A DNA stretch of 54,314 nucleotides, from positions 1 to 54,314 of the IMG/VR virus record IMGVR_UViG_3300042868_004434. The stretch is one strand, 5' to 3'. A program made the position numbers and the translations under genes. Every line of letters begins with the position of its first letter. Position 1 is the stretch's first letter. A model generated the notes under the pieces. It saw only the letters and a program-made list of their open reading frames with translations. It was not told the DNA's origin and ran no database searches. This document shows, piece after piece, positions 4,104-44,562 of the stretch. This DNA comes from a virus (lineage: Duplodnaviria; Caudoviricetes).

Positions 4104-6524
4104 CTAGTAGTACGCGGCGCGTGCGCGCCTAAACAGTTGGGGTTCGTCCGGTTCGTCGGACGCAAGGCGTATTAAACCACCTTGGCGGATGCGCAGCAAT
4201 GCTTGACTCACCGTATCCACGATGTCATCGAACTCGCCATTCGGAAATTCGGCCACTTGGTCGATCACCTCTTGCGCCCACCGGGTCTCTGGGGCCCACA
4301 CCATGCCGGAGCTGAACATGTCCGCTACGGCGTTGACCCGCACTCGCTTGTCGTTGCCTCGGCTGGGCGTAAACTCGTGAATTGGTAAGCCCGTGGCCCG
4401 CATCTCCTGTATCAAGGGGGCTCCGGCGGCTTTCTTCTCAATCACCACCATGTCCGGCTCCCACTCTCGGTAGTACTCGAACGCAAACTTCTTGAGCTCG
4501 GGGAACTCCTTACGACCATACCAGCAGTCGAGTAGCATTATCTGATCTTGATTCTCTTCCTCGTTGAACCACACGCCCCATGTTGTTACTGCACTGGGGT
4601 CGGAGCTGTCATTTTTGCCGTGGGCGGTATCCCATGACTGCAGGATGATGTCGCATTTCGGAGGCTTGGCCCCGGCCCAGCGCCGCCACCATTCGCGTTT
4701 TATCAGTGCGCCCTCCTCGGAGGTGGGCTCTTGCATGTATTGGGCAGCCCAGAACTGCGGCGCCATGCCCGCTTTCTTCGCCATAAGTTGTTCTACTGGC
4801 CATTGTTCTGGCCAAAGGCTCTTGCCGGACGGCATTATCGCGGGGAAGCGTACCTCGTTCCAAGGCAAGCTGTCGGGGTTGTTCTCGGCCCACATCAACG
4901 CCCGTCCGATAGGGTCTTTCTTCCCCCAGCGCGTGTTATGGCTCACCACGCCGTTGGCTATGAAGTTCTCGGTACGCTCGACCTCCATGTCAAAAACAGG
5001 CTCGTACCCATCTTCGACAATCTCAACAATCGCATCTGGAATGGTATCGCACGTATCTTGCAGCGGCTTCAAGCACTTCTGGTGTTTTACCTCGCCCGAT
5101 AGCAAGGTTGCAGTCGTTACACAGGAGCCCTCTAACTTTGTTCGTGTCGTGACAGTGATCGACGTAGAGTTTTGGCGTTTGCCCTGCTCTTGAATTCTCT
5201 CTTGTTGGTAGTTGCCTACAGATTGCACAACAGCCCTCTTGGCTTTCGCACATAGCGTCGTAAGTTTCCGTAGAAATACCATACCGATATTTAAGGTGGC
5301 TTTCACGCTTTTGCGCATCTGTGAGACGGTACTTTCCTTCTCTCCACACTTTCTTGCCGTGGCAACTTTTGCACAGCCCTTTTGCAGAGACGGGTTCGCT
5401 ACAACCTTCCGTTGTGCATTCGACACCGCGCCACTTACCCCAATGCCCTGCGCCGCGCTGCCCGAGTCGCCCATCTGCTCGCAGTTTTCGTCCGTAGCAC
5501 AGCTTGCACAACCCCTTGGCTTTGACGGGTCGCAGGCAGCCTGCGGTTGCACAACCACTACTAGGCAATCCCCCACCTTTAGGTCTCGTACTCTCACCCA
5601 TGATCTGACTCCGTTTCGATCAACAAGAAAAGGATGTCTCTTGTTTGCACGGACGATTTTACCAGAAGTCGTTGTTATTTTGTAAACAAAATCGGAAGGA
5701 TGCTTAATCCAATTTGTTATGCGGGAGGTATTTATTATTCCGTTGTCATATGTAGCAACGGTGTCCCCTACTTGTATGTGCTGAATTTCTTTCTCAGTTT
5801 CGTCTGCCATCAACACGCGCGTTTCGGCTGTCATGCACCCAATCATGATGATCCGCCCGCCCGGCATCAAGCGCTGCAACGGGCCCACCTGCACATACTC
5901 CCACGCGGTAGCGAAGGCTTTGTCGGGGTCTCCCGCCAGTACGGCCTGCTCGGACACCAAGTCATCGGCAATCAGCAAGTGCGCGCCGCGCCCGGCCACC
6001 GAACCACCGATACCAACCGCAAGGTACATGCCGCCCTTGGTTGTCGTCCAGTCGCCCGACGCGCTCTTGTCGCGGCTCACCACGGTGTCAGGGAATATCT
6101 GGCGGTACACCTCGCTGTCGATCATGTTCCGTATCTTGCGCCCGAAGGTGGCGGACAAGTCTGCGGTGTGGGTGACCATCATGATCTGGTGGTTCGGGTG
6201 CTGCCCCAAATACCACGCTACGAACAGGTACGAGATCGTCTCAGATTTACCAAAGCGCGGGGCCATGCTGACGGTCAAGCGTAGCTCCTCCCCGGTGGCC
6301 ACCTTGTGCAGCAGTGGGCGCATGTGTTTGTGGTGGGGCCCGACCTTGAACTCCGGGTAAACACGTTTACAGAAAGCCAGAAAGTCCGTCTTGGCGTTGA
6401 GTATGGCCCGTTTGTCCTCCAGCGCCTCTAGGTCGGCTAGCAGCTGCGCCTTCTCTGCAGCGGGCATGGCGGGTAGGTTCGCCAGTAGCGCGGCTACGGC
6501 TTCGGGGGACAGGTCGTCAAGCAT
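4104..6524 (-). CDS. terL: Terminase large subunit interrupted by a 301-aa intein (mature about 505 aa)
   Basis: Walker A MAPRFGKS, Walker B LLIADD, coupling motif IG/TRW split by the intein, nuclease motifs QSWDTA and FDDIVD. Confidence 0.95.
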   Translation of the reverse strand: MLDDLSPEAVAALLANLPAMPAAEKAQLLADLEALEDKRAILNAKTDFLAFCKRVYPEFKVGPHHKHMRPLLHKVATGEELRLTVSMAPRFGKSETISYLFVAWYLGQHPNHQIMMVTHTADLSATFGRKIRNMIDSEVYRQIFPDTVVSRDKSASGDWTTTKGGMYLAVGIGGSVAGRGAHLLIADDLVSEQAVLAGDPDKAFATAWEYVQVGPLQRLMPGGRIIMIGCMTAETRVLMADETEKEIQHIQVGDTVATYDNGIINTSRITNWIKHPSDFVYKITTTSGKIVRANKRHPFLVDRNGVRSWVRVRDLKVGDCLVVVVQPQAACDPSKPRGCASCATDENCEQMGDSGSAAQGIGVSGAVSNAQRKVVANPSLQKGCAKVATARKCGEKESTVSQMRKSVKATLNIGMVFLRKLTTLCAKAKRAVVQSVGNYQQERIQEQGKRQNSTSITVTTRTKLEGSCVTTATLLSGEVKHQKCLKPLQDTCDTIPDAIVEIVEDGYEPVFDMEVERTENFIANGVVSHNTRWGKKDPIGRALMWAENNPDSLPWNEVRFPAIMPSGKSLWPEQWPVEQLMAKKAGMAPQFWAAQYMQEPTSEEGALIKREWWRRWAGAKPPKCDIILQSWDTAHGKNDSSDPSAVTTWGVWFNEEENQDQIMLLDCWYGRKEFPELKKFAFEYYREWEPDMVVIEKKAAGAPLIQEMRATGLPIHEFTPSRGNDKRVRVNAVADMFSSGMVWAPETRWAQEVIDQVAEFPNGEFDDIVDTVSQALLRIRQGGLIRLASDEPDEPQLFRRARAAYY
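4935..5837 (-). mobile_element. Intein in TerL (Cys230-Asn530, +1 residue Thr)
   Basis: Block A CMTAETRVLMAD...IQVGD.V, block B RANKRHPFL, blocks F/G EPVFDMEVERTENFIANGVVSHN followed by T; removal restores IMIG-TRWG. Confidence 0.93.
5023..5601 (-). CDS. Endonuclease VII-family homing endonuclease nested out of frame inside the intein
   Basis: 192 aa; CAIC...LYVDHCHDTNKVRGLLCNDCNLAIG Endo VII signature, LKYRYGIS motif, two N-terminal C...GC..P..AKGLC..C zinc fingers; GGAG 7 nt before the ATG. Confidence 0.9.
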   Translation of the reverse strand: MGESTRPKGGGLPSSGCATAGCLRPVKAKGLCKLCYGRKLRADGRLGQRGAGHWGKWRGVECTTEGCSEPVSAKGLCKSCHGKKVWREGKYRLTDAQKRESHLKYRYGISTETYDAMCESQEGCCAICRQLPTRENSRAGQTPKLYVDHCHDTNKVRGLLCNDCNLAIGRGKTPEVLEAAARYVRYHSRCDC

Positions 6525-7240: not shown

Positions 7241-7870
7241 CTACTTTTTCCAATACGGGATGTATCGTTGCCAGTCTTCGGTGTCCCACCGCCTACACAG
7301 CATCTCGACACGGGCGTATTGTTTCCTTCCCAACGTTCGACGCATCTTTTCTTCGGGGCTCACGGTATTTCTTCTATTGTTGGACTGCTCCTTTCTTGTA
7401 GCCCATTTGCAATTATTGGGTTCGTAATTACCGTCATTGTCCACACGCTCTACCGTGGCCCCCTCAAACGGGGGCTCGCCCATGTCCGTCAGGAACTTTT
7501 CAAAGTCGTGCCAGCGCTCGCACACCTTTATGCCTCGGCCTCCGTAGCTACCAAAATGTGTATGCGTGTCTGCGTAGCATCTCGCTATCATCCCAGACCA
7601 GCGACTGTATATCTTTGCCTGCGGGTGTCCTTTAACGCTATATCCCTCCGAGTATTTCTGGGCTTTCTTTCCCAACCGGGTAGAGCGCGCGCAGCCACAG
7701 CTGGTGGTGTTTCCGCTCTTGAGGTGCGCTGCCCACGTAAAAAACTTTGTTCCGCATTCGCACAGGCACAGGCATCTTCGCCGGGGTACTTTCCCAACAG
7801 GTCGAACCATCCTTGTTCTAAGTACTTCTAATTTTTCAAAATTTTTTTGCAGTGTTACTGGCCTGACCAT
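7241..7870 (-). CDS. Free-standing HNH-type homing endonuclease
   Basis: [56 protein letters not shown]; TAAGGAG RBS. Confidence 0.85.
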
Positions 7871-36924: not shown

Positions 36925-39900
36925 TCACTCGCCTTTGATCTTTCCGTAGGCTTCGCGGAACGCAGCCGCAGTCTGGATTTTGTACTGGCGTATGTTGTCG
37001 AGCATGCGGCGCTTCTCCTCTGGACTCCTGTTAGACGCCCGGATCGCGGTCTCCGCCTTGGACAACTGCCCCATCTTCTGCGTGAAGGCCCCGGCCACGG
37101 TAGCGCCCGCGTACTCCTTGGAACGCTCCTGCAAGAGCTGCATAGCCTGTGCCTTTTCGCCCTTCTCTAGCAGTCCGTCCACGGTCTTCTTGAAGGCAGT
37201 GAACTCGCCCATCTTCTCGTAGGTATCGTTGATGATGCCGCCTGCGTCGTTAGGCTGGAATACGCCGCCGATCATTGGCCTTGAGGACAGCCGACGTGCT
37301 GCCTTCTCTGGGCTGTCGCTGGCTGGCATGAGGGAGTCCACTGCGGCCAGTACGAACATCCCCACGCCGCCGGTATAGCCGTTCAGCAACTGCTCCATCA
37401 TGATGGGCGACTGTCCAGTGAGTTGGCCTACTTCTCGTGCGATCTGTGTGGTGTTCTCACGAAATTGGAATGGCTTTTCCATGCCCTGCTCGGAGCGGGA
37501 CAGGATGTCGCGGCCCGTAAACAACGACTTGCCGGTGCCCACCTCGATCAAAGGCTTGATGGCTTGCGGAAGGAGGAAGCTGCTACCGCCGGGGATGGTG
37601 TTGCGCAAAATGGTGCTGAAGGCGTTGACGGCCTCGTCGCTGCCGTGCTTGTCCGTCATGCTACGGTACAGGGCCTCGGGCACGGACTTGAAAATATAGC
37701 CCAGCTCGAACGGCACCGGTACACGTATGGCTTCCTCTACGCCCGGCACACGCACAAACCAGTTACCGTACTTCTGCTCGGGCAATGCATTCTTGTAGGC
37801 TTCGTCGTCCTCCATCGCGGCGGCGTAAGCCAAGCTGGCTGCAGCCAGCAACGTGCCTCGGGCGATCAGTTTGCCCTTGATATTCAGGCGCTCGTCGTTG
37901 GGCATGTTCCCGGTAAACGCCTTGTACAGCACATTCAAAGACTGAATCTGTGCGTTCAGGAAGGGGATCATGGCGTTGGCCATGTGGATGCTAGGTGACG
38001 CGCCGCGCTTGCTAAAGTTCATGGACTCCAGCGTCTGCAGGGTGGCCTCCATCTCCGACATGCCTTGCTTTATGTAGCTCCCGTACTGCGCGCGTCGGGT
38101 GAGGGCATCGGCCCCCATCGACATCGCCTCTAGCTTGCCCAAAGCGTTGAGCCAACCGGACTTGCCTGCGGTAACGTCGCGCAGCACCATCGACATGTCT
38201 TCGGAGGTGCCCGTAAATACCTGCCCACCAGTGATACCCCGGTTGTTCAGAATTTCCTTATTCTTGGCGTTAATCTCTTTCACCGCACTCCACACGGGCG
38301 TGATGTTAGCCCCGCTACCCAGCGCAGCGCCCAGTGAGTCACGGAAAACCTGCCTAGCGGCGTATACCGGGCTGATAGTGACGGCCTTGCGCAACAACTG
38401 TGCGGGCATGGCCAAGAGGCGCACCACGCCAGAAAGCTGGGTAGGGATACCCGCCATGCCTTTGACCAACAAGTCCGCAGGGATGCTATCGGGCGTGTCC
38501 ACGCGGGCGAACTTCTCCGCGCCATTGTCATAGAACTTGACGATGGTATTGCCCTTGACATCGTGCCCGTTGCCGATGGTGGCCATGCCCATATCCTGCA
38601 GCTCGAACGCAGCGTTCTTGGTGGCTATGTTGTTCAAGGCCATGTCCAGAATCATGCTGGTGTTCTGCACCGCGCTGGTGGTGAAATCCAAAATAGGCCT
38701 ATCGCCGCCCACCAGCTCCTGCAGATGTGGCTGCTCCTTCATGTTGCCTATACGGATGGGCGACTCGCTACCAATCAGCAGCTCGGCCACGCCGTTGCGA
38801 TCCCGGTAGTACGGGATGTAGTCATCTTCTTTAACCAACTTCGCGCCCACGTCCTTGCTTATTGCGCCGCTTTGCTCTAGTAGCTTGATTAGGTTGCGGT
38901 TGTACTCGTTGTACTGGCTGCGCGCGTCTTCGAAGACATCCTTCAGGCCCGGGGTGTTCTGCACCTCCTGCGCAATAGCATCCAAGTCGGCCTGCGTGAT
39001 GTCGCCGCCGAAGTTAAGCGTCTCGATGCCTTTACTCTTGGCGCGGATAGCCGCCATGTAGCCGGTGAATAGCCGGGTGACGTAGTTTTTGTCTTCTATG
39101 GACGCCTTGGCCAGCGTGTCTGCGATACCCTTGAGGTTCGCGCCCTTGACGCTCTCGATCATGTACTCTTTTTTGCCGTCCGCCCGGGTCTTTTCTACAC
39201 GCTGGGGCACGCCGTTCGCGGCGGCTACGGACAGGAAGTGCTGGCGCTGGTCGTACATACGCAGGTAGTACATCATTTGGGAGCCCTTCAGCGGCTCCAT
39301 TACCCGAGACAGACGCTCAAAACCGGCAAAGCGATCCACCAACTGCGTCTCAAATGCGAGGCCGGACAAGTTGTCTTTTATCTTGCCCCACCAAGGCTTG
39401 TCCTTGGCCACGATGCGGTCTACCACATCTTTGGCGGAGCCTGTTGTGCGCTGCACACTGGGAGTACCTGCGCCCTGTATGCGGCGCGAGGGCATCATGA
39501 TCTTGTCCACGAGGTCGGCCACCTGCTTCGCCGTGGGTGTCGGGGGTTTTTGTGGCATACCGAACATGCGGCGCACGAAGTTCTTTAACCTATCCCACAA
39601 ACCGTACTTGTCCAGCTTGGCCTGAAACTCGGGGTTAGTGCGCGCCTCGGCTACAAACTCACGCACATTGGGAATCTCTTCGTTAGCAAAGGCTTTACTG
39701 GCAGCGACTTGGCGCTGCATGCCCTCTAATCCTTTTCGCGCTGCGGCTTGCTCGGGGGTAAGCGTAGCCGGGTCTGCCAGCAACACGCTGTCGGTAGCCG
39801 CGTGGTATAGCTCGTGCATCACGTCTTCCATGTATGCGTCGGGGCGCATGACAATTTCGTTCGTCTCTGGGAAGTACATGCCCGCCACTTCGTTACCGGC

Positions 39901-42900
39901 GTTGTCACGTATGTCCGGGTTCACCGATATTTTGGTGCGCAGCACCAGTGGGCGCACGCTAGCGGCGAGGGGGTACCCGGCCTTGATAAGCATGTCCGCG
40001 GCGTCCAGAATACGGCCGTCCGCGACCGCAGCGGCCAGTTCGGGGGTCATATCCGTTGAGGTGCGGAAAGCCCGGTTTGCCTGAGATGGTGCAGCTTTCG
40101 GCCCCTCCCCGCCGTTGACTGCGCGCGCTGTGCGCGAAGACTTCTCCAACGCCTGTTCTGCAACGGGGCGGGCTTTCTCCAGACGGGCTACGAAGCCGGT
40201 ATACTTTTCGATGGCTTCCGCGTCGTTGTTTTCCTGCGCTTCTTCCAGTTTGAACTGGGCCTTTTCCAGCAAGGTTTCGATCTTGGATAGCTCAGCCAGC
40301 GCCTGCTCATTTGCGCGCATCTTCGGTGCACGCCCCCCCTGCGTTATCTTCCCGCCACGAACTGGTTTCACTAACGGGCCTGCTTTGCGTAGCGGTAGTG
40401 CGCCGGAGGACTTACCCGTTGATGCGTCGATACCCCGCTCCAGCGTTAGGCGATTTGCGTCGTCTTGCGCCTCCTCCGCGCGTTGTGCTGGGGTCAGTAT
40501 CTCGGTCTTTTTCGAGCGCTGCTGTGCCTGCTCTTGCAGGCGCACGAGCTCCCGCTTTTTAGAGCGTAGGTCTGTAAGGTCTTTACGGCGCTGAAGAATG
40601 GTCTTCTTGGCCTTGCCCGGCTCAAGTATGGCTGCTTTCTTTTCACCTATCTTGATGTCCAGCTCCGCTAGGTGCTCCGCCAACGCCTGCTTCGCTGCGG
40701 TAGACATCTCTGTCTCGTTAGACAACGTACCGAAAGCTATGGCTATTTCCTTGCGTATGTTAGCTGCTTCGTACTTGTCCTTGTTGCGCATTGACTTGGA
40801 AGCAGTCTCGTCCTTGGAGCGTTCTTCTAGTTCTTTCGCACGGTCTTGCAGTTCAGCTATGTATTCGGTGGTCTTGCGCGCTTGCTCGAAACTGACGGCC
40901 GTGCCGGGAATAGCCTGCAGCCGTTCCAGTCGTTCCTGCTCCGCTTTGCGCTGGGCTGCGTCCGCAGCGGTTCGTTGTATAGGGGTGTCTCTTGGCAAAG
41001 CCTCCTCTACCTGCACAGCCACGCGAGCATCGCGCGCCTGCTCTAGCGGCCGCAATAGCGCTTCAATTTCTGCAGCTAGCTGACGGCTCTCCGCAGCGCG
41101 GGCCTGCAATTCTGCGGTAACTCTTTCTGTGTTGCGTGCTGCGGTGGCCTTGGCGCGGGTCAAGACCCCTTGGGCCGTAGATGATTCGCGTTTGGCCTGC
41201 TTGCGCGCGGCTTGCGCTTCGGCGCTATCGTTCTCAGCCACTGCCGTGTTTAGCGCGTCTTGGGCGGCGACTAGGCTAGATTGGGCAGTCTCCATAGCCC
41301 CGGTGGCGTCGCGCAAGCGCAACTGCAGCTCCATGTCGCGGCCTAGGTAGGCCAGCACACTGCGGTCTAGTGGGTTGTTCTGGCGCTCCAGCAAGGCGGC
41401 GTGCTGCTTTGTGGCTTTGTCTGCGGCGGCTGCAAGGGTATCTAGCTGCGTCTGGGTGTGCCCGCCGTGGGCTAGGGCGTCTTTGTACCGGCGGTGTGCT
41501 GTGGCGGCTGCGTCTGCTGCGGCCTGTACTTTTTCATCCCCGCCAAACTTGGCGGTGTTCTTGGCAATAGTGTCTACTACACGAGCGCGCTGGTCTTGCG
41601 CAGCCTTCAGTGCTTTCTGTGCGGCAGCAACGGCTTTACGCGCGGGCTCTAGTTTTGCCTGCACCGCGTCCATAAGGCTCTGTTGCTTGGCCACCGCCGC
41701 CACGTACTTGTCCGTGGCCATCTGAATAGCCTGCGCACCTACACGCTTCGTCGCGGTCAGCATGGTCTGCAATGTGCCGATAGACTCGCGTAGCTCGGCG
41801 GCTTTGGCTTCTAGGGAGGCAATCGTCCTGTGTGCCCGGGCGGATGTCTGCAGCGCCAGCCCTACGGCTTTGCGAGACTCGTTGAGTGCGTCGCTGGCTA
41901 GGAACTGCTGAAACGCTTCAGGCGTGTCAAAGATAACGCCCTGCAGCTCGGTGTCTGGAAACATGTCGCCCTGCGGCACCTCGTCCGAACGCTTGCTCTG
42001 CGCTACACTGGCTAGATGCTTTTGCACACGCGCGTGTACGTCCGTTATGTCTTGTCCTATGCGTGTGCGGTGCAACAGTTCAGCTACGTCGGGCAGCTCA
42101 TCTGCGGCTGTCAGTTCGGGCAGGCGGCTGCGCACGGTTTGTAAGAAAGGGGAAACCTTACCGGACTGCTGTAACTGGGCAAACTGTTGTTGCACAGACT
42201 CTGGCGAGATGTCTGCGGCACGTTCAATGGCTATGTCTTGGGTAGGGCTGCGGGTGCCTGCAAGGTCTGCGGCCACCGGGGCCGTCAGTTTGCCTTTTGG
42301 TGCGGGTTTGTCCACATCCAGTCCGGGCTTGCTCTTGATGGCGCGCATCTGCTCCAGCAAGGCGTCTACCTGCTTGCGGGCTTGGGTGTTGTTGGGGTCT
42401 GCCTTGTACTCGCGCCGCGCGGCTTGTAACTGTAGCGCCAGTGCCTGCAACTGCGCTTGCTTTGTTTGCTCGCTCTCTACCTTAGTTGCCGTGTACTGCC
42501 CGGGGAACAGGCGTCTCTGCTCGGTCGTGCCGTAGGGCAGCGCCGCGCGCTCCATACCCTCTATTTCCAACTGCGTTTGGCGCTCTTTGCGTGCTTCGCC
42601 AGCGTAGCCGGGTTCTTTGTCAGCTAGGCCCCGCACTCCGGCCACTTCCTGCTCTACACGCTGGCGTTGCTGTACGGCGGTCTCCCGCCCGGTGGCCATT
42701 TCGTCGGCTGTCTGCTGATCTGCCGCCGCCGTGGCCTGCACACTGTCTTTGGTGAACAAGCCCGGGTTTTGTTGGCGCAGCGCGTCTATTTTCTTTGACA
42801 GCTTCTCTATGGCGTCCACGTCACCGATCTCGCCCGCTTTGCGCAGTGCAGTCTGTGCGGTAGCGTACTGTTTATTCAGCGCGTCGTCGGTAGGCCCCGC

Positions 42901-44562
42901 CTTCGGCGCGGGTGGTAGCTCTGCCGCTTCCTTGCGCGCCTGCGCCAACGCCGCTTCAATCTTGCGGAATTTCTGTGCTTCTTGGACGGCTATCTCGGTC
43001 TCGCCGGTCTGCGCCGCTACGGCCACGTTGTGCCGCTGCTGCTCCAAAGCACTCTCAAGCCCGGCAATCTGGCGTTGGTACTGGGAATGCTGCGCGGTTA
43101 TGTCCTCGGGTGTGGGTATACGGGCCGGGGCCTGCGCTGCGCTGTCTTGCAAAGGCTCGCCAAATAGGTCGGTGTTGCCTTGCGGTGCGGCAGACGCTGC
43201 CGCCGGAGCCTGTGCTTGCTGTGCGTCCAGCAGCGGTTTCACCTGCAGGTACGCCTCGGCCTTGGGCTTAAGCACGTCGTTTTCAAACGCCTTTACCTGC
43301 TCCTGCGCGGCTTTGGCCTGCAGCTTGTCCGCCATGCTGGCGTCTTTGCCGACCTTGGTAGCGGCTTTGAGTTGCGCGAACTGTGCTTCTGCGTCCTGAT
43401 ACTCCTGCGCCACCTGTGCGGCGTACGCGGGGTCTTGTAGCTTGGCTTGCTGTGCTGCGGCCTCTTGTTCTTGTTGCGCGCGCTGTGCTGCGACGGTTTG
43501 TTCTTGTTGGGCCTTGATCTGCTGCGCCTGCTCCTGCTTAGCACGGATTTCTTGCTCAGCAACTTCGCTGCGCGCAGCACTCTTGTCTGCAAAACGCCCC
43601 GCAGCGCCTAGAGGCCCGGACAATGCGGCTTGGTAGGCCGTGTCTTTGTATTCTTTGATAGCATCCGCGTCGGTCAGCGACAGCCCCGCTTGGGCACGCT
43701 CCAGCATCTGCTGCACCACCTCGGTGGGCGTCTCGGCAAGAATACCGACGCCTGTGCCCTTGGCCATGCTCATCGCCAAGCCTTCTTTGGCTAGCCTCTC
43801 AGCGGCTGCGGGGTTCTTCGCTAGGGCAACGCCTAGCTTGGGGCCGAGAACGCGCTTCGCTACGCCCAAGAAAGGGATCATGTTACCGGCGGCATCCAGT
43901 GCCCCGGAAGCTGCGGCAGCCCCGGTCGCCGCACCCATATTAACTGGAGCGTCGGGGTTCTCTTGTACTTGTCGCTGGACGTTAGCACCTTGTGACGCCA
44001 AGAAGCCGGGAAGGAACGCGCCAGCCAATCCGCCCCCAATAGTGCCTATGGCAGTGCCCGGCCCCGGCGCTATAAAAGAGCCCCCCAAACCGCCTAGTTT
44101 AGCTCCGGCATACATAGAAGTCGCAGTAGCTCCTAGGTTGGGTAGCTGCTGCGCAATGGCGAGAGGGGCTTGCCTAATGACTTCCTTAGCGCCCCCAAAC
44201 AAACCGTCCTTGTCGTACGCCGCACCAACTTTGTCCATGCCGATCTCATCGGCATAACGGTTCTGAATGCCCTCGTTGCGCTTGAGTCCTTCTTGTCCGG
44301 CCTGCCGCGCGTCGCCGGTAAAAGACTTCACCCCGGTGCGGATACCGGACTCTAACTGCTCTGTCCCTCGCTTGAGGTTGGCCAAGAGCCCGGACTCGGG
44401 CTTAGTGGTGCTGGGCACGCCCCCGGATGCTTGGGGGTTCTCTTTACTTAGGCGTGCCCAATTCTGCTGTGCGTAGGCAATGGCCTGCGCCTCAGTGGCT
44501 CCCTCCGGAGCGGTGACTTCAATGGTTCTACCGTCCGGGGAGGTTACTGCAAAACGCGGCAT
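36925..44562 (-). CDS. Giant internal virion/ejection protein (large polyvalent protein with LPD38-like C-terminus)
   Basis: 2545 aa, Ala/Gln-rich coils; GMY...I...HELYH metallopeptidase-like motif; C-terminal IPFLNA.IQ, RVPVPFELG..F...PE, KPLIEV..GKS.FTG..I. Confidence 0.75.
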   Translation of the reverse strand: MPRFAVTSPDGRTIEVTAPEGATEAQAIAYAQQNWARLSKENPQASGGVPSTTKPESGLLANLKRGTEQLESGIRTGVKSFTGDARQAGQEGLKRNEGIQNRYADEIGMDKVGAAYDKDGLFGGAKEVIRQAPLAIAQQLPNLGATATSMYAGAKLGGLGGSFIAPGPGTAIGTIGGGLAGAFLPGFLASQGANVQRQVQENPDAPVNMGAATGAAAASGALDAAGNMIPFLGVAKRVLGPKLGVALAKNPAAAERLAKEGLAMSMAKGTGVGILAETPTEVVQQMLERAQAGLSLTDADAIKEYKDTAYQAALSGPLGAAGRFADKSAARSEVAEQEIRAKQEQAQQIKAQQEQTVAAQRAQQEQEAAAQQAKLQDPAYAAQVAQEYQDAEAQFAQLKAATKVGKDASMADKLQAKAAQEQVKAFENDVLKPKAEAYLQVKPLLDAQQAQAPAAASAAPQGNTDLFGEPLQDSAAQAPARIPTPEDITAQHSQYQRQIAGLESALEQQRHNVAVAAQTGETEIAVQEAQKFRKIEAALAQARKEAAELPPAPKAGPTDDALNKQYATAQTALRKAGEIGDVDAIEKLSKKIDALRQQNPGLFTKDSVQATAAADQQTADEMATGRETAVQQRQRVEQEVAGVRGLADKEPGYAGEARKERQTQLEIEGMERAALPYGTTEQRRLFPGQYTATKVESEQTKQAQLQALALQLQAARREYKADPNNTQARKQVDALLEQMRAIKSKPGLDVDKPAPKGKLTAPVAADLAGTRSPTQDIAIERAADISPESVQQQFAQLQQSGKVSPFLQTVRSRLPELTAADELPDVAELLHRTRIGQDITDVHARVQKHLASVAQSKRSDEVPQGDMFPDTELQGVIFDTPEAFQQFLASDALNESRKAVGLALQTSARAHRTIASLEAKAAELRESIGTLQTMLTATKRVGAQAIQMATDKYVAAVAKQQSLMDAVQAKLEPARKAVAAAQKALKAAQDQRARVVDTIAKNTAKFGGDEKVQAAADAAATAHRRYKDALAHGGHTQTQLDTLAAAADKATKQHAALLERQNNPLDRSVLAYLGRDMELQLRLRDATGAMETAQSSLVAAQDALNTAVAENDSAEAQAARKQAKRESSTAQGVLTRAKATAARNTERVTAELQARAAESRQLAAEIEALLRPLEQARDARVAVQVEEALPRDTPIQRTAADAAQRKAEQERLERLQAIPGTAVSFEQARKTTEYIAELQDRAKELEERSKDETASKSMRNKDKYEAANIRKEIAIAFGTLSNETEMSTAAKQALAEHLAELDIKIGEKKAAILEPGKAKKTILQRRKDLTDLRSKKRELVRLQEQAQQRSKKTEILTPAQRAEEAQDDANRLTLERGIDASTGKSSGALPLRKAGPLVKPVRGGKITQGGRAPKMRANEQALAELSKIETLLEKAQFKLEEAQENNDAEAIEKYTGFVARLEKARPVAEQALEKSSRTARAVNGGEGPKAAPSQANRAFRTSTDMTPELAAAVADGRILDAADMLIKAGYPLAASVRPLVLRTKISVNPDIRDNAGNEVAGMYFPETNEIVMRPDAYMEDVMHELYHAATDSVLLADPATLTPEQAAARKGLEGMQRQVAASKAFANEEIPNVREFVAEARTNPEFQAKLDKYGLWDRLKNFVRRMFGMPQKPPTPTAKQVADLVDKIMMPSRRIQGAGTPSVQRTTGSAKDVVDRIVAKDKPWWGKIKDNLSGLAFETQLVDRFAGFERLSRVMEPLKGSQMMYYLRMYDQRQHFLSVAAANGVPQRVEKTRADGKKEYMIESVKGANLKGIADTLAKASIEDKNYVTRLFTGYMAAIRAKSKGIETLNFGGDITQADLDAIAQEVQNTPGLKDVFEDARSQYNEYNRNLIKLLEQSGAISKDVGAKLVKEDDYIPYYRDRNGVAELLIGSESPIRIGNMKEQPHLQELVGGDRPILDFTTSAVQNTSMILDMALNNIATKNAAFELQDMGMATIGNGHDVKGNTIVKFYDNGAEKFARVDTPDSIPADLLVKGMAGIPTQLSGVVRLLAMPAQLLRKAVTISPVYAARQVFRDSLGAALGSGANITPVWSAVKEINAKNKEILNNRGITGGQVFTGTSEDMSMVLRDVTAGKSGWLNALGKLEAMSMGADALTRRAQYGSYIKQGMSEMEATLQTLESMNFSKRGASPSIHMANAMIPFLNAQIQSLNVLYKAFTGNMPNDERLNIKGKLIARGTLLAAASLAYAAAMEDDEAYKNALPEQKYGNWFVRVPGVEEAIRVPVPFELGYIFKSVPEALYRSMTDKHGSDEAVNAFSTILRNTIPGGSSFLLPQAIKPLIEVGTGKSLFTGRDILSRSEQGMEKPFQFRENTTQIAREVGQLTGQSPIMMEQLLNGYTGGVGMFVLAAVDSLMPASDSPEKAARRLSSRPMIGGVFQPNDAGGIINDTYEKMGEFTAFKKTVDGLLEKGEKAQAMQLLQERSKEYAGATVAGAFTQKMGQLSKAETAIRASNRSPEEKRRMLDNIRQYKIQTAAAFREAYGKIKGE

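Follow-up and report, generated by a model that had tools for sequence, protein, structure and literature searches.

The terL gene of an uncultured Caudoviricetes virus (IMG/VR record IMGVR_UViG_3300042868_004434; the whole 54,314-nt stretch analysed is hereafter called the window) is interrupted by an intein, the central part of which carries a gene for an Endonuclease VII-type nuclease in another frame of the same strand. Comparison with relatives confirmed that this frame-shifted, nested layout in a TerL intein is real and widespread. The reading that we consider quite probable is that of a mobile class 1 TerL intein with a separately encoded, internally initiated Endonuclease VII homing nuclease in the +2 frame.

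The terL gene (4104..6524; this and all following features lie on the minus strand) encodes an 806-aa precursor in which Pfam detects Terminase_6N and Terminase_6C, together with an Intein_splicing match split across residues 239-530 (1.6e-18). Three intein-less relatives of 503-505 aa (P0068, P0069 and P0070) lack precisely TerL residues 230-530. Their alignment delimits an N-extein of residues 1-229, ending in RIIMIG (5838..6524), an intein of 301 aa running from Cys1 to His300-Asn301 (4935..5837) and a C-extein of residues 531-806, starting with TRWGKK and followed by the stop codon (4104..4934). The spliced TerL would therefore have 505 aa, the mature length that an earlier note on this DNA had proposed and that agrees with the exact gap. 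Within the intein, model confidence, wobble pattern and G+C content (0.37-0.39 versus about 0.6 in the flanks) mark out an N-terminal splicing domain (intein residues 1-98; 5544..5837). It is followed by a stop-free central linker in the TerL frame (residues 99-259; 5061..5543), recognized by its pLDDT, its Pfam results and a contrast in identity between frames, and by a C-terminal splicing domain (residues 260-301; 4935..5060) ending in VFDMEVERTENFIANGVVSHN. The nested gene, encoding a putative homing endonuclease of 192 aa (5023..5601), starts 923 nt downstream of the TerL ATG, i.e. +2 modulo 3, and its TGA stop (5025-5023) falls inside the C-terminal splicing region. No Pfam match was obtained for four neighbouring ORFs, including an 810-aa ORF downstream of terL, and positions 1-25000 of the window gave no megablast match to cultured phages.

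The TerL insert is, by its sequence, a class 1 intein. It matches the PF14890 Intein_splicing family (1.1e-19; 71.2 bits, cut-off 35.8), and the residues expected at the splice junctions are in place (Cys1, His300-Asn301 and Thr531 at the +1 position). Among 16 homologues, C1, R67-H68-P69-F70, W80, D283 and N301 never vary, and conservation of H300 reaches 90% or more. Block B of inteins is characterized by a TxxH motif; in the same homologues His68 is invariant and the position of the Thr is occupied by an invariant Asn65 (N-K-R-H). AlphaFold2 predicts both splicing domains confidently (pLDDT 77-98 with beta strands for the N-terminal domain, 82-98 for the C-terminal one), whereas the central 161 residues of the TerL frame are predicted to be disordered (pLDDT 22-35). 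No Pfam family other than Hint-type ones was found in the 301 aa read in this frame. The earlier proposal of intact splicing blocks around a centre devoid of any domain in the intein frame thus stands, and the search of both frames that it had suggested returned Intein_splicing in the TerL frame and Endonuclease_7 in the shifted ORF. In passages of Kelley 2016 (mBio, PMC5050341), ready splicing was observed for an MBP-intein-GFP reporter built with the homologous TerL6-f intein from gp6 of mycobacteriophage Chandler. [quoted passage not shown] The departure from the canonical motif in block B is a point against this reading, to be set beside the splicing of the Chandler homologue.

The shifted ORF matches Endonuclease_7 (PF02945) over residues 101-185 (5.9e-19, 68.2 bits, cut-off 23.6), the match spanning positions 2-81 of the 82-position profile, and a profile built from 16 homologues matches T4 endonuclease VII (1e7d) at 2.4e-8. 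Residues D148, H149, H151 and N165, which we take to be catalytic, and C125, C128, C161 and C164, presumably zinc ligands, align with the T4 enzyme and are invariant in 16/16 homologues. The predicted catalytic core (D148-H149-x-H151...R157-G-L-L-C161-N162-x-C164-N165; 5107..5160) does not vary among the 16 homologues and aligns with the T4 endonuclease VII stretch DHDH ... GKVRGLLCNLCN; of the 51 non-redundant nested loci, 49 have the catalytic motif. Two Cys-rich modules precede this core. The first, zinc-ribbon-like one (C17, C22, C32 and C35; 5494..5553) is present in 7 of the 16 aligned homologues and missing from short forms of the nuclease; in the second (C62, C67, C77 and C80; 5359..5418), C62, C67 and C77 are invariant in all 16. 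The nuclease model (pLDDT 82) has strands at 146-149 and 156-160 followed by a helix at 162-166, with a pLDDT of 81-92 per 10-residue block. A Foldseek search of this model against the PDB gave nothing at E <= 0.001; the top rows above this threshold were Hpy99I, Cap5, PacI and T4 Endo VII (13th, probability 0.72). On the strength of the family match and the conserved residues, the nested ORF is assigned to the Endonuclease VII/His-Me-finger-type nucleases with one or two N-terminal Cys-rich modules, presumably for DNA binding. The PF02945 match and the modules C17-C35 and C62-C80 are in line with the complete 192-aa Endo VII with two zinc fingers that had been proposed for this frame.

The 51 non-redundant loci in which the same layout in the same frame was identified belong to cultured actinophages, to contigs of viral or metagenome origin, and to prophages carried by Bradyrhizobium, Oribacterium, Dysosmobacter and Mycolicibacterium. 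Intact nuclease ORFs of 151-209 aa are present in 49 of them. Nesting of the nuclease in a TerL intein was seen in 30 of a first 42 loci; among metagenome loci, 26 of 57 had it, and among 80 genome loci, the best 18. In this classification, 12 genome loci with a long open alternative frame and no intein motifs were counted as free-standing (L138, L142, L147, L150, L153, L155, L158, L160, L162, L169, L173 and L182), and two loci with 19-residue matches (L102 and L103) were left out of the metagenome part. The TerL frame of nested cases lies one base downstream of the nuclease frame; no nested case in any other register was found among the loci surveyed, and in the loci examined the nuclease was never found in a TerL without an intein. 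The metagenome scan yielded no relative closer than those already known (best, 53%). The C-extein is 44-52% identical to the TerL of phage DSL-LC04, Pelagibacter phages HTVC023P/027P and Planktothrix phages, and near-identical DNA is present in runs labelled freshwater. A lone RNA-library contig (X18; 268 nt, 5103-5370) may correspond to DNA carry-over, and the study that produced it is possibly the source of the window itself.

The window belongs to a metagenome-derived virus record, and such assemblies can contain indels. The two frames could accordingly be an assembly or sequencing artefact, compensating indels having shifted a nuclease domain originally in frame, an outcome that the earlier note had named as fatal to its proposal. 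However, a single register is maintained across the 51 non-redundant loci, which include the finished genomes of the cultured phages Phlyer, Chandler, Angelicage and Vincenzo. Furthermore, contigs from three other studies (X5, X9 and X10) differ by 0-2 substitutions and contain no indel, the uncovered parts in X9 and X10 being gaps between short contigs. We thus give an artefact practically no credence.

The codon-position patterns of differences among homologues indicate which frame is selected along terL. In the exteins (7/8 pairs) and in both splicing domains (8/8 pairs), TerL position 3 differs most often; for instance, the C-terminal splicing domain is 97% identical to that of locus L006, and TerL wobble positions account for 12 of the 13 differences. 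In the overlap, differences peak at TerL position 2, which is nuclease position 3, in 8/8 pairs, and the third codon position of the nuclease is 2-3 times more variable in 11/11 pairs and in 8/8 pairs of a second set (one locus of the pairwise analysis, L184, lies outside the motif-filtered set of 51). The overlap DNA is 64-75% identical to that of relatives when compared in the nuclease frame versus 33-49% in the TerL frame. Changes in excess at TerL second positions cannot result from selection on the TerL frame; they are what a coding nuclease frame would leave. These substitution patterns show purifying selection on the nuclease frame in the overlap, selection thus passing from one frame to the other within the intein.

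These data bear on the possibility that the nested ORF no longer produces any protein and survives as a relic, kept open through selection on the TerL frame or by chance. Loss is tolerated, since clear decay is visible in two of the 51 relatives: the catalytic core of L094 has been removed by an in-frame deletion and the nuclease of L121 has a premature stop and a lost His, the TerL frame being intact in both. Nevertheless, a relic would not accumulate its changes at TerL second positions, nor keep catalytic and zinc-binding residues invariant among homologues that are overall 41-72% identical, with 49/51 ORFs intact. We consider such a relic very improbable, and retain a presumably functional nuclease gene as the preferred reading.

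The TerL frame itself contains no stop in nested copies, whereas at least one stop occurs in the TerL-equivalent frame of free-standing relatives in 11/12 loci and in 31/31 loci. This contrast between sequences shows that the TerL frame is held open by selection in nested copies. The chance of two open frames, previously put at about 1e-4, holds under a uniform-codon model but not under a stricter test in which synonymous codons were shuffled within the nuclease ORF (2000 permutations) and stops counted in the TerL frame. For the window, 2.6 stops were expected and none occurred in 2.65% of permutations (P = 0.027). The probability of zero stops was 0-0.007 for L010, L019 and L006 and 0.55-0.71 for the G+C-rich L002, L007, L011 and L026, in which an open TerL frame is unremarkable. 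As the permutation test is weak for G+C-rich relatives, we put weight on the contrast with free-standing ones. The double open frame in the window alone is only moderately improbable; the comparative data carry the argument.

The nuclease start is embedded in the intein codons GGA GTC AGA TCA TGG. The SD-like GGAG (5612-5609), formed by the Gly76 codon GGA and the G that opens the following codon GTC, is followed by a 7-nt spacer and the ATG (5601-5599), which overlaps the Trp80 codon TGG (5600-5598). These coordinates agree with the concealed GGAG-N7-ATG described earlier. The start codon overlaps the Trp80 codon in 51/51 non-redundant homologues (ATG in 43, GTG in 7 and TTG in 1); as xTG is a start codon for three of the four bases, the information lies solely in the excess of ATG. 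In 34/51 homologues an SD-like 4-mer precedes the start by 3-12 nt, versus 11.4% of 14200 random positions, and a clear one is absent in 17/51. The start sits 19-20 codons inside the conserved N-terminal splicing domain. We infer from these signals that the nuclease would be translated separately by internal initiation, and that it could then be regulated apart from TerL.

Programmed ribosomal frameshifting could alternatively yield a fusion of the N-extein, the N-terminal splicing domain and the nuclease, the two frames being on one strand with their junction just past the N-terminal splicing domain. In locus L122, a natural indel has indeed made the nuclease continuous with the N-terminal part, in a gene that is otherwise broken. 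A start codon fixed in every homologue and a frequent SD-like motif are, by contrast, what internal initiation would predict, and in L007 a stop codon in the nuclease frame right before the ATG leaves hardly any room for an upstream shift site. Frameshifting is for these reasons regarded as improbable, and internal initiation is retained in what follows.

The intein is sporadic among close host alleles. The C-extein of the window is 96% and 95% identical to those of the intein-less P0068 and P0069, and TerL alleles 94-96% identical to that of the window have neither intein nor nuclease; 92 of the 98 proteins found only in the search that gave the closest exteins are shorter than 560 aa. Intein and extein similarities rank the relatives differently: identity in the N-terminal splicing domain and in the C-extein is 91% and 73% for P0008, but 72% and 85% for P0056. 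About 240 nt, covering the 3' end of the nuclease gene and the C-terminal splicing domain, are 81% identical to mycobacteriophage inteins, whereas the exteins gave no nucleotide match. These comparisons show, at the sequence level, that intein and extein histories disagree, and the nested nuclease probably spreads the intein.

T4 gp49 resolves branched DNA before packaging. A member of the same resolvase family (PF02945), located inside a packaging gene and intact across deep divergence and many host phyla, could likewise have been domesticated by the phage, e.g., for resolving branched DNA before packaging or for aiding terminase cleavage. Domestication is, however, difficult to reconcile with the closely related TerL alleles devoid of intein and nuclease, with the sporadic presence of the element among close exteins and with the persistence of nuclease-dead variants, an overall picture typical of a dispensable selfish element. 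We consider it unlikely, if somewhat less so than frameshifting, and favour a homing role.

In the mechanism that we propose, ribosomes reading terL would make the precursor and translate the nuclease DNA into a stop-free, disordered linker of about 160 residues between the Hint halves, and the whole 301-aa intein would be spliced out to give the 505-aa TerL. Other ribosomes would start at the internal GGAG-N7-ATG, set in the conserved Gly76 codon and the invariant Trp80 codon, and release a free nuclease. In co-infections, this nuclease would presumably cut an intein-less terL at or near the IMIG/TRW junction, and repair would copy the intein in. Internal initiation, nuclease activity, target site and homing are inferred.

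In a phylogenetic tree, one branch, with a weak SH-aLRT support of 75.9, separates all 52 nucleases associated with inteins from the other 33. The arrangement may be a stable dual-coding design of single origin, as opposed to a passing accident of invasion, its +2 register fixed via Gly76 and Trp80, both among the best conserved codons of the Hint fold, and spread by homing, a reading to which we give slightly less than even weight. In this reading, the unit would have spread through the terminases of freshwater phages and of phages with hosts in at least Actinomycetota, Pseudomonadota and Bacillota, and nuclease synthesis would follow late expression, when co-infecting targets are present, as initiation would take place inside the terL mRNA. 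The earlier note had suggested that a free-standing Endo VII gene invaded a mini-intein, which is a plausible origin, although a simple cassette insertion would not predict a start codon inside a conserved splicing domain. The nuclease start and stop, both lying within splicing regions, would be better accommodated by an ancestral in-frame Endo VII intein, later modified by frame-changing indels or recombination; given the single tree branch, one event of either kind is enough. On the other hand, PF02945 is in frame in 0/62 TerL-intein relatives, and a search of longer proteins for in-frame TerL-intein-Endo VII fusions gave five matches and no terminase, which is weak evidence (the five matches correspond to NeuB- or HTH-linked Endo VII domains). 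Moreover, free-standing relatives with the same Cys module and catalytic core exist, and the initial frameshift would by itself have inactivated a gene that is essential. An in-frame ancestor thus appears rather doubtful, and invasion of a mini-intein remains a plausible scenario.

Inteins and homing endonucleases are thought to have been joined after protein splicing evolved, and this step is best documented by elements that have kept the splicing part and the nuclease as distinct genes. The out-of-frame Endo VII arrangement now appears as a conserved and selected architecture in phages of several bacterial phyla, beyond a few actinophages. Gene callers annotate only TerL, so the nested nuclease gene is systematically missed. 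Its defined start can be knocked out with TerL left unchanged, alleles that naturally lack a working nuclease or the intein are at hand for comparison, and splicing data exist for a culturable homologue; nuclease production and homing are thus directly testable.

The caution about novelty in the earlier note was justified, as out-of-frame Endo VII inteins in actinophage TerL have already been reported in a 2025 preprint (Gosselin, Arsenault, Gogarten). As far as its main text describes them, these inteins share with that of the window the TerL host, the Endo VII family, the same strand and the +2 register ('frame 3'), as well as the insertion site and start position. The window nuclease is 46-48% identical to theirs (48.4% with Angelicage, E = 9e-39 by tblastn, the frame of which was checked directly). 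Unlike those actinophages, the virus studied here is uncultured and its TerL extein is nearest to Pelagibacter, Planktothrix and gammaproteobacterial phages. By term search, the main text of the preprint contains no mention of start codon, ribosome or metagenome and uses 'purifying' only generally; the anchoring of the start site and the breadth across phyla were not found there.

The Chandler gp6 TerL6-f intein is homologous to that of the window, occupies the same TerL site and harbours an Endo VII ORF nested in the same register (47% identity), with a GTG start on the Trp codon; it differs in its 254-aa intein and its 152-aa short-form nuclease with a single Cys module. In the passages and term matches of Kelley 2016 (PMC5050341), no nuclease is described for TerL6-f, 'HNH' appears in another context only, and the tests of endonuclease activity were confined to the BAKA and Bethlehem inteins, which are of the LAGLIDADG type. 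T4 endonuclease VII (gp49; 1e7d/1en7) shares the Pfam family and the aligned D-H-x-H, N and four Cys over only about 62 residues, but is a free-standing 157-aa junction resolvase without N-terminal Cys-rich modules or an intein.

Hidden out-of-frame nucleases, in this case HNH, are likewise described for the ShiLan-domain DNA methylases of actinophages in passages of Arsenault et al. (2025; PMC11855218), with the host frame open and a GTG start shortly inside the insert. There, however, splicing domains were not found by the authors and the insert stays as a loop of the host protein; moreover, leaderless initiation was proposed with no detectable RBS, whereas an SD-like motif is common in the TerL-nested loci. 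The cellular dnaX intein likewise has a homing endonuclease in an overlapping frame, is sporadic and has been explained by invasion of a mini-intein, but its host is cellular and its host gene is dnaX. Finally, split inteins in 'fractured genes' (Dassa et al. 2009), as presented in the discussion of the 2025 preprint, also have an endonuclease gene of the free-standing type between the two splicing halves; the host gene is there divided into two ORFs, whereas in the window it is one continuous ORF, with both frames open.

The terL gene is an 806-aa ORF on the minus strand (4104-6524) with Pfam matches to Terminase_6N and Terminase_6C and a split match to Intein_splicing. Its intein (4935-5837, minus strand) runs from Cys1 to His300-Asn301 and is followed by Thr at +1. 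In end-to-end alignments, exactly residues 230-530 are missing from three intein-less relatives (P0068, P0069 and P0070; 503-505 aa), the first of which is 94% identical to the window TerL across shared residues and reads IIIG/TRW at the empty junction. These alleles set the intein at 301 aa and predict a spliced TerL of 505 aa, the mature length that the earlier note had put forward. The nuclease ORF (5023-5601, minus strand; 192 aa; Pfam Endonuclease_7 at 5.9e-19) begins 923 nt past the terL ATG on the same strand and is thus in the +2 frame. Its GGAG-tcagatc-ATG start is contained in the intein codons GGA GTC AGA TCA TGG, and its TGA stop lies 30 codons ahead of the intein end. All the elements that had been described from the sequence, an intact intein and an Endo VII gene in a shifted frame with a hidden GGAG-N7-ATG, are therefore correct at the level of ORFs, Pfam matches and sequence. 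The G+C content is 0.37-0.39 in the N-splicing domain versus about 0.6 in the flanks.

In an alignment of 16 nuclease sequences, the motifs D148-H149-x-H151 and R157-x-L-L-C161-N162-x-C164-N165 are invariant, as are C125 and C128 and a Cys module formed by C62, C67 and C77; a second, N-terminal Cys module is present in the window and in six of the 15 other sequences. The profile built from this alignment matches T4 endonuclease VII (2.4e-8) and brings the catalytic and zinc motifs of the two proteins into register. The structural model of the nuclease (pLDDT 82, residues 1-11 disordered) retrieved only weak His-Me-finger matches with Foldseek.

Such an overlap could result from compensating indel errors or from a frame that is open by chance. 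Three other studies provide contigs across this stretch (runs X5, X9 and X10), which differ from the window by 0-2 substitutions and by no indels. For chance, synonymous codons were permuted within the nuclease ORF and stops were counted in the TerL frame, a conservative test: 2.6 stops are expected, and 2.65% of 2000 trials had none. The open TerL frame of the window by itself is therefore only moderately unlikely, and the same test is uninformative for several G+C-rich relatives (P up to 0.71). We regard the comparison of related loci as decisive on both artefact and chance.

When cultured phages were searched by tblastn, every one of the best matches to the nuclease fell within a terminase gene of a Gordonia or Mycobacterium phage. 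The identical +2 offset to the annotated TerL CDS is seen in Phlyer, Angelicage, Vincenzo and Chandler. Of 42 phage and viral-contig loci, 30 have the nuclease nested within an ORF of 520-1116 aa, one base downstream in frame and free of stops across it; so do 26 of 57 metagenome loci and, among 80 genome loci, the best 18. Once identical DNA is removed, these correspond to 51 distinct nested loci. The weaker matches are free-standing genes; at least one stop interrupts the TerL-equivalent frame in 11 of the 12 from the phage and viral-contig set and in all 31 from metagenomes.

Codon-position counts for eight largely independent pairs, aligned in the TerL frame, indicate which frame is selected. 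Differences are most frequent at TerL position 3 in both splicing domains (8/8 pairs) and in the exteins (7/8 pairs, the exception being a saturated pair at 31% identity), and at TerL position 2, the third position of the nuclease, in the overlap (8/8 pairs). For example, the window and locus L006 differ at TerL positions 1, 2 and 3 by 81, 57 and 137 nucleotides in the N-extein and by 36, 77 and 48 in the overlap. The third nuclease position is also the most variable in 11 of 11 pairs aligned in the nuclease frame and in all eight comparisons within the window's nearest lineage (L006, L184, L185 and L187), where the overlap is 64-75% identical as nuclease versus 33-49% as TerL-frame peptide. 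Likewise, 61 TerL-intein proteins share 45-91% identity with the window in the N-splicing domain and only 23-49% in the TerL-frame central part. By these patterns, the nuclease is a protein-coding gene under purifying selection, and the TerL-frame peptide across it is constrained only to remain open. The AlphaFold2 model agrees with such a linker: intein residues 1-98 and 260-301 (block means 77-98) are predicted to fold confidently, and residues 99-259 score 22-35. In three proteins (P0008, P0007 and P0011) the N- and C-splicing domains (the former at 5544-5837) are the closest to those of the window (86-93% identity), and the central region (5061-5543) is no nearer than in relatives with 78% splicing-domain identity; splicing domains and nuclease region may recombine independently, or may just evolve at very different rates.

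The start of the nuclease is fixed on the intein codons. The triplet overlapping the codon of the invariant Trp80 (x|TGG) is a start codon of the nuclease frame in every one of the 51 non-redundant loci (ATG in 43, GTG in seven and TTG in one). Of these loci, 34 have an SD-like 4-mer at a distance of 3-12 nt upstream, compared with 11.4% of 14200 random positions. This 4-mer is usually GGAG at 7 nt, formed from the conserved Gly76 codon. With the start on the Trp80 codon, the first 19-20 nuclease codons, poorly conserved as nuclease, necessarily overlap conserved codons of the Hint domain. In locus L007, a stop codon immediately precedes the overlapping ATG, so that no start farther upstream is possible there. 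The nuclease would thus be made by internal initiation on the terL message. A 268-nt metatranscriptome contig (run X18) matches the nuclease ORF (5103-5370) with one substitution; it may derive from DNA carry-over, and its study may be the window's own source.

Several observations speak for mobility of the intein, the lower G+C content of its N-splicing domain among them. The intein is missing from the two nearest (96% and 95%) of the best 120 C-extein relatives, and 92 of the 98 proteins found only by the C-extein search are shorter than 560 aa. Intein and extein similarity to the window rank relatives differently, identities in N-splicing domain and C-extein being 91% and 73% for P0008, 72% and 85% for P0056, and 82% and 86% for P0028. 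In the pair L020-L030, the exteins are 77-81% identical and the splicing domains only 53-68%. A stretch of about 240 nt across the 3' end of the nuclease ORF and the C-splicing domain has 81% identity to inteins of B3 mycobacteriophages, and the exteins gave no nucleotide match.

Two natural decay forms retain an intact TerL frame. In L094 (1300-2558), an in-frame deletion from just past the first Cys module to just ahead of the GEVRGLLCNDCN stretch takes out the catalytic core and leaves a 63-aa ORF, with both splicing domains intact; this locus is a natural mini-intein derivative of the L013-type element. In L121 (1500-3900), the nuclease has a stop after 49 codons, an insertion and a change of DHxH to DHYF that removes the catalytic His, and the TerL frame is open across 1001 aa despite this decay. 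Farther upstream, the L121 TerL also appears to contain the C-terminus of another intein (...VVHN|S). A third locus, L122 (1500-3500), is a broken prophage copy on a 911-kb alphaproteobacterial MAG contig, with a stop within the N-splicing domain and an indel that aligns N-extein and N-splicing domain with the nuclease frame, the C-splicing domain and C-extein being in the next frame. Besides the TerL intein, five terminases of 1143-1158 aa (P0026, P0029, P0042, P0052 and P0057) carry a precomputed LAGLIDADG_3 match (PF14528), which suggests a second, canonical intein; PF14528 is absent from the records of P0022 and P0046, of similar length (1130-1140 aa).

The uncultured virus record that makes up the window is 83% complete, and its TerL extein is nearest (44-52% identity) to TerL of phage DSL-LC04 (recorded host: Gammaproteobacteria), of Pelagibacter phages HTVC023P/027P and of Planktothrix phages. 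Several studies have runs, labelled lake water or freshwater sediment, that contain near-identical DNA. Nested copies are present in isolate genomes of Bradyrhizobium tropiciagri (948-kb contig), Oribacterium sp., Dysosmobacter sp. and Mycolicibacterium vanbaalenii, and in metagenome-assembled genomes labelled as many phyla, whose binning may be wrong. In a tree of 85 nucleases, one branch separates all 52 intein-associated sequences from the 33 free-standing ones; since its SH-aLRT value is weak (75.9), the tree is only compatible with a single origin of the former. Elsewhere in the window, a 209-aa Cys-rich ORF (7241-7870, minus strand) two genes upstream of terL has no Pfam match at E <= 0.01 and, judged by eye, may resemble small nucleases or DNA-binding proteins of phages; a very long ORF (36925-44562, minus strand) encodes 2545 aa.

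The nested nuclease is thus a real and biologically attractive feature, and it appears functional by every sequence-based test available. The locus belongs to a kind of architecture already described in 2025 in a preprint (Gosselin, Arsenault, Gogarten) that names Angelicage, Affeca, Keitabear and Sedona as carriers, terms the out-of-frame Endo VII layout in TerL inteins previously unreported and proposes that a free-standing nuclease gene invaded an intein. Our literature search found no report of the Endo VII arrangement predating it. The terms 'start codon', 'ribosom' and 'metagenom' do not occur in its main text; its supplements may list more phages. To this we add that the register is fixed and that SD and start codon are anchored to invariant codons, for Gly and Trp respectively, along with codon-position evidence for a change of selected frame inside the intein, natural alleles that lack the intein or have a dead nuclease, and the occurrence of nested nucleases far outside actinophages. 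The 'TerL6-f' intein of Chandler gp6 was shown to splice readily (Kelley et al., 2016; PMC5050341), and Chandler has the nested nuclease ORF, here encoding 152 aa from a GTG on the intein Trp codon. Two systems described by the preprint authors' laboratory are comparable: an actinophage methylase insert likewise carries an out-of-frame nuclease, of HNH type, but without splicing domains (PMC11855218), and a cyanobacterial dnaX intein is, like the TerL intein, reported to contain an out-of-frame nuclease (bioRxiv 10.64898/2026.09.14.751524).
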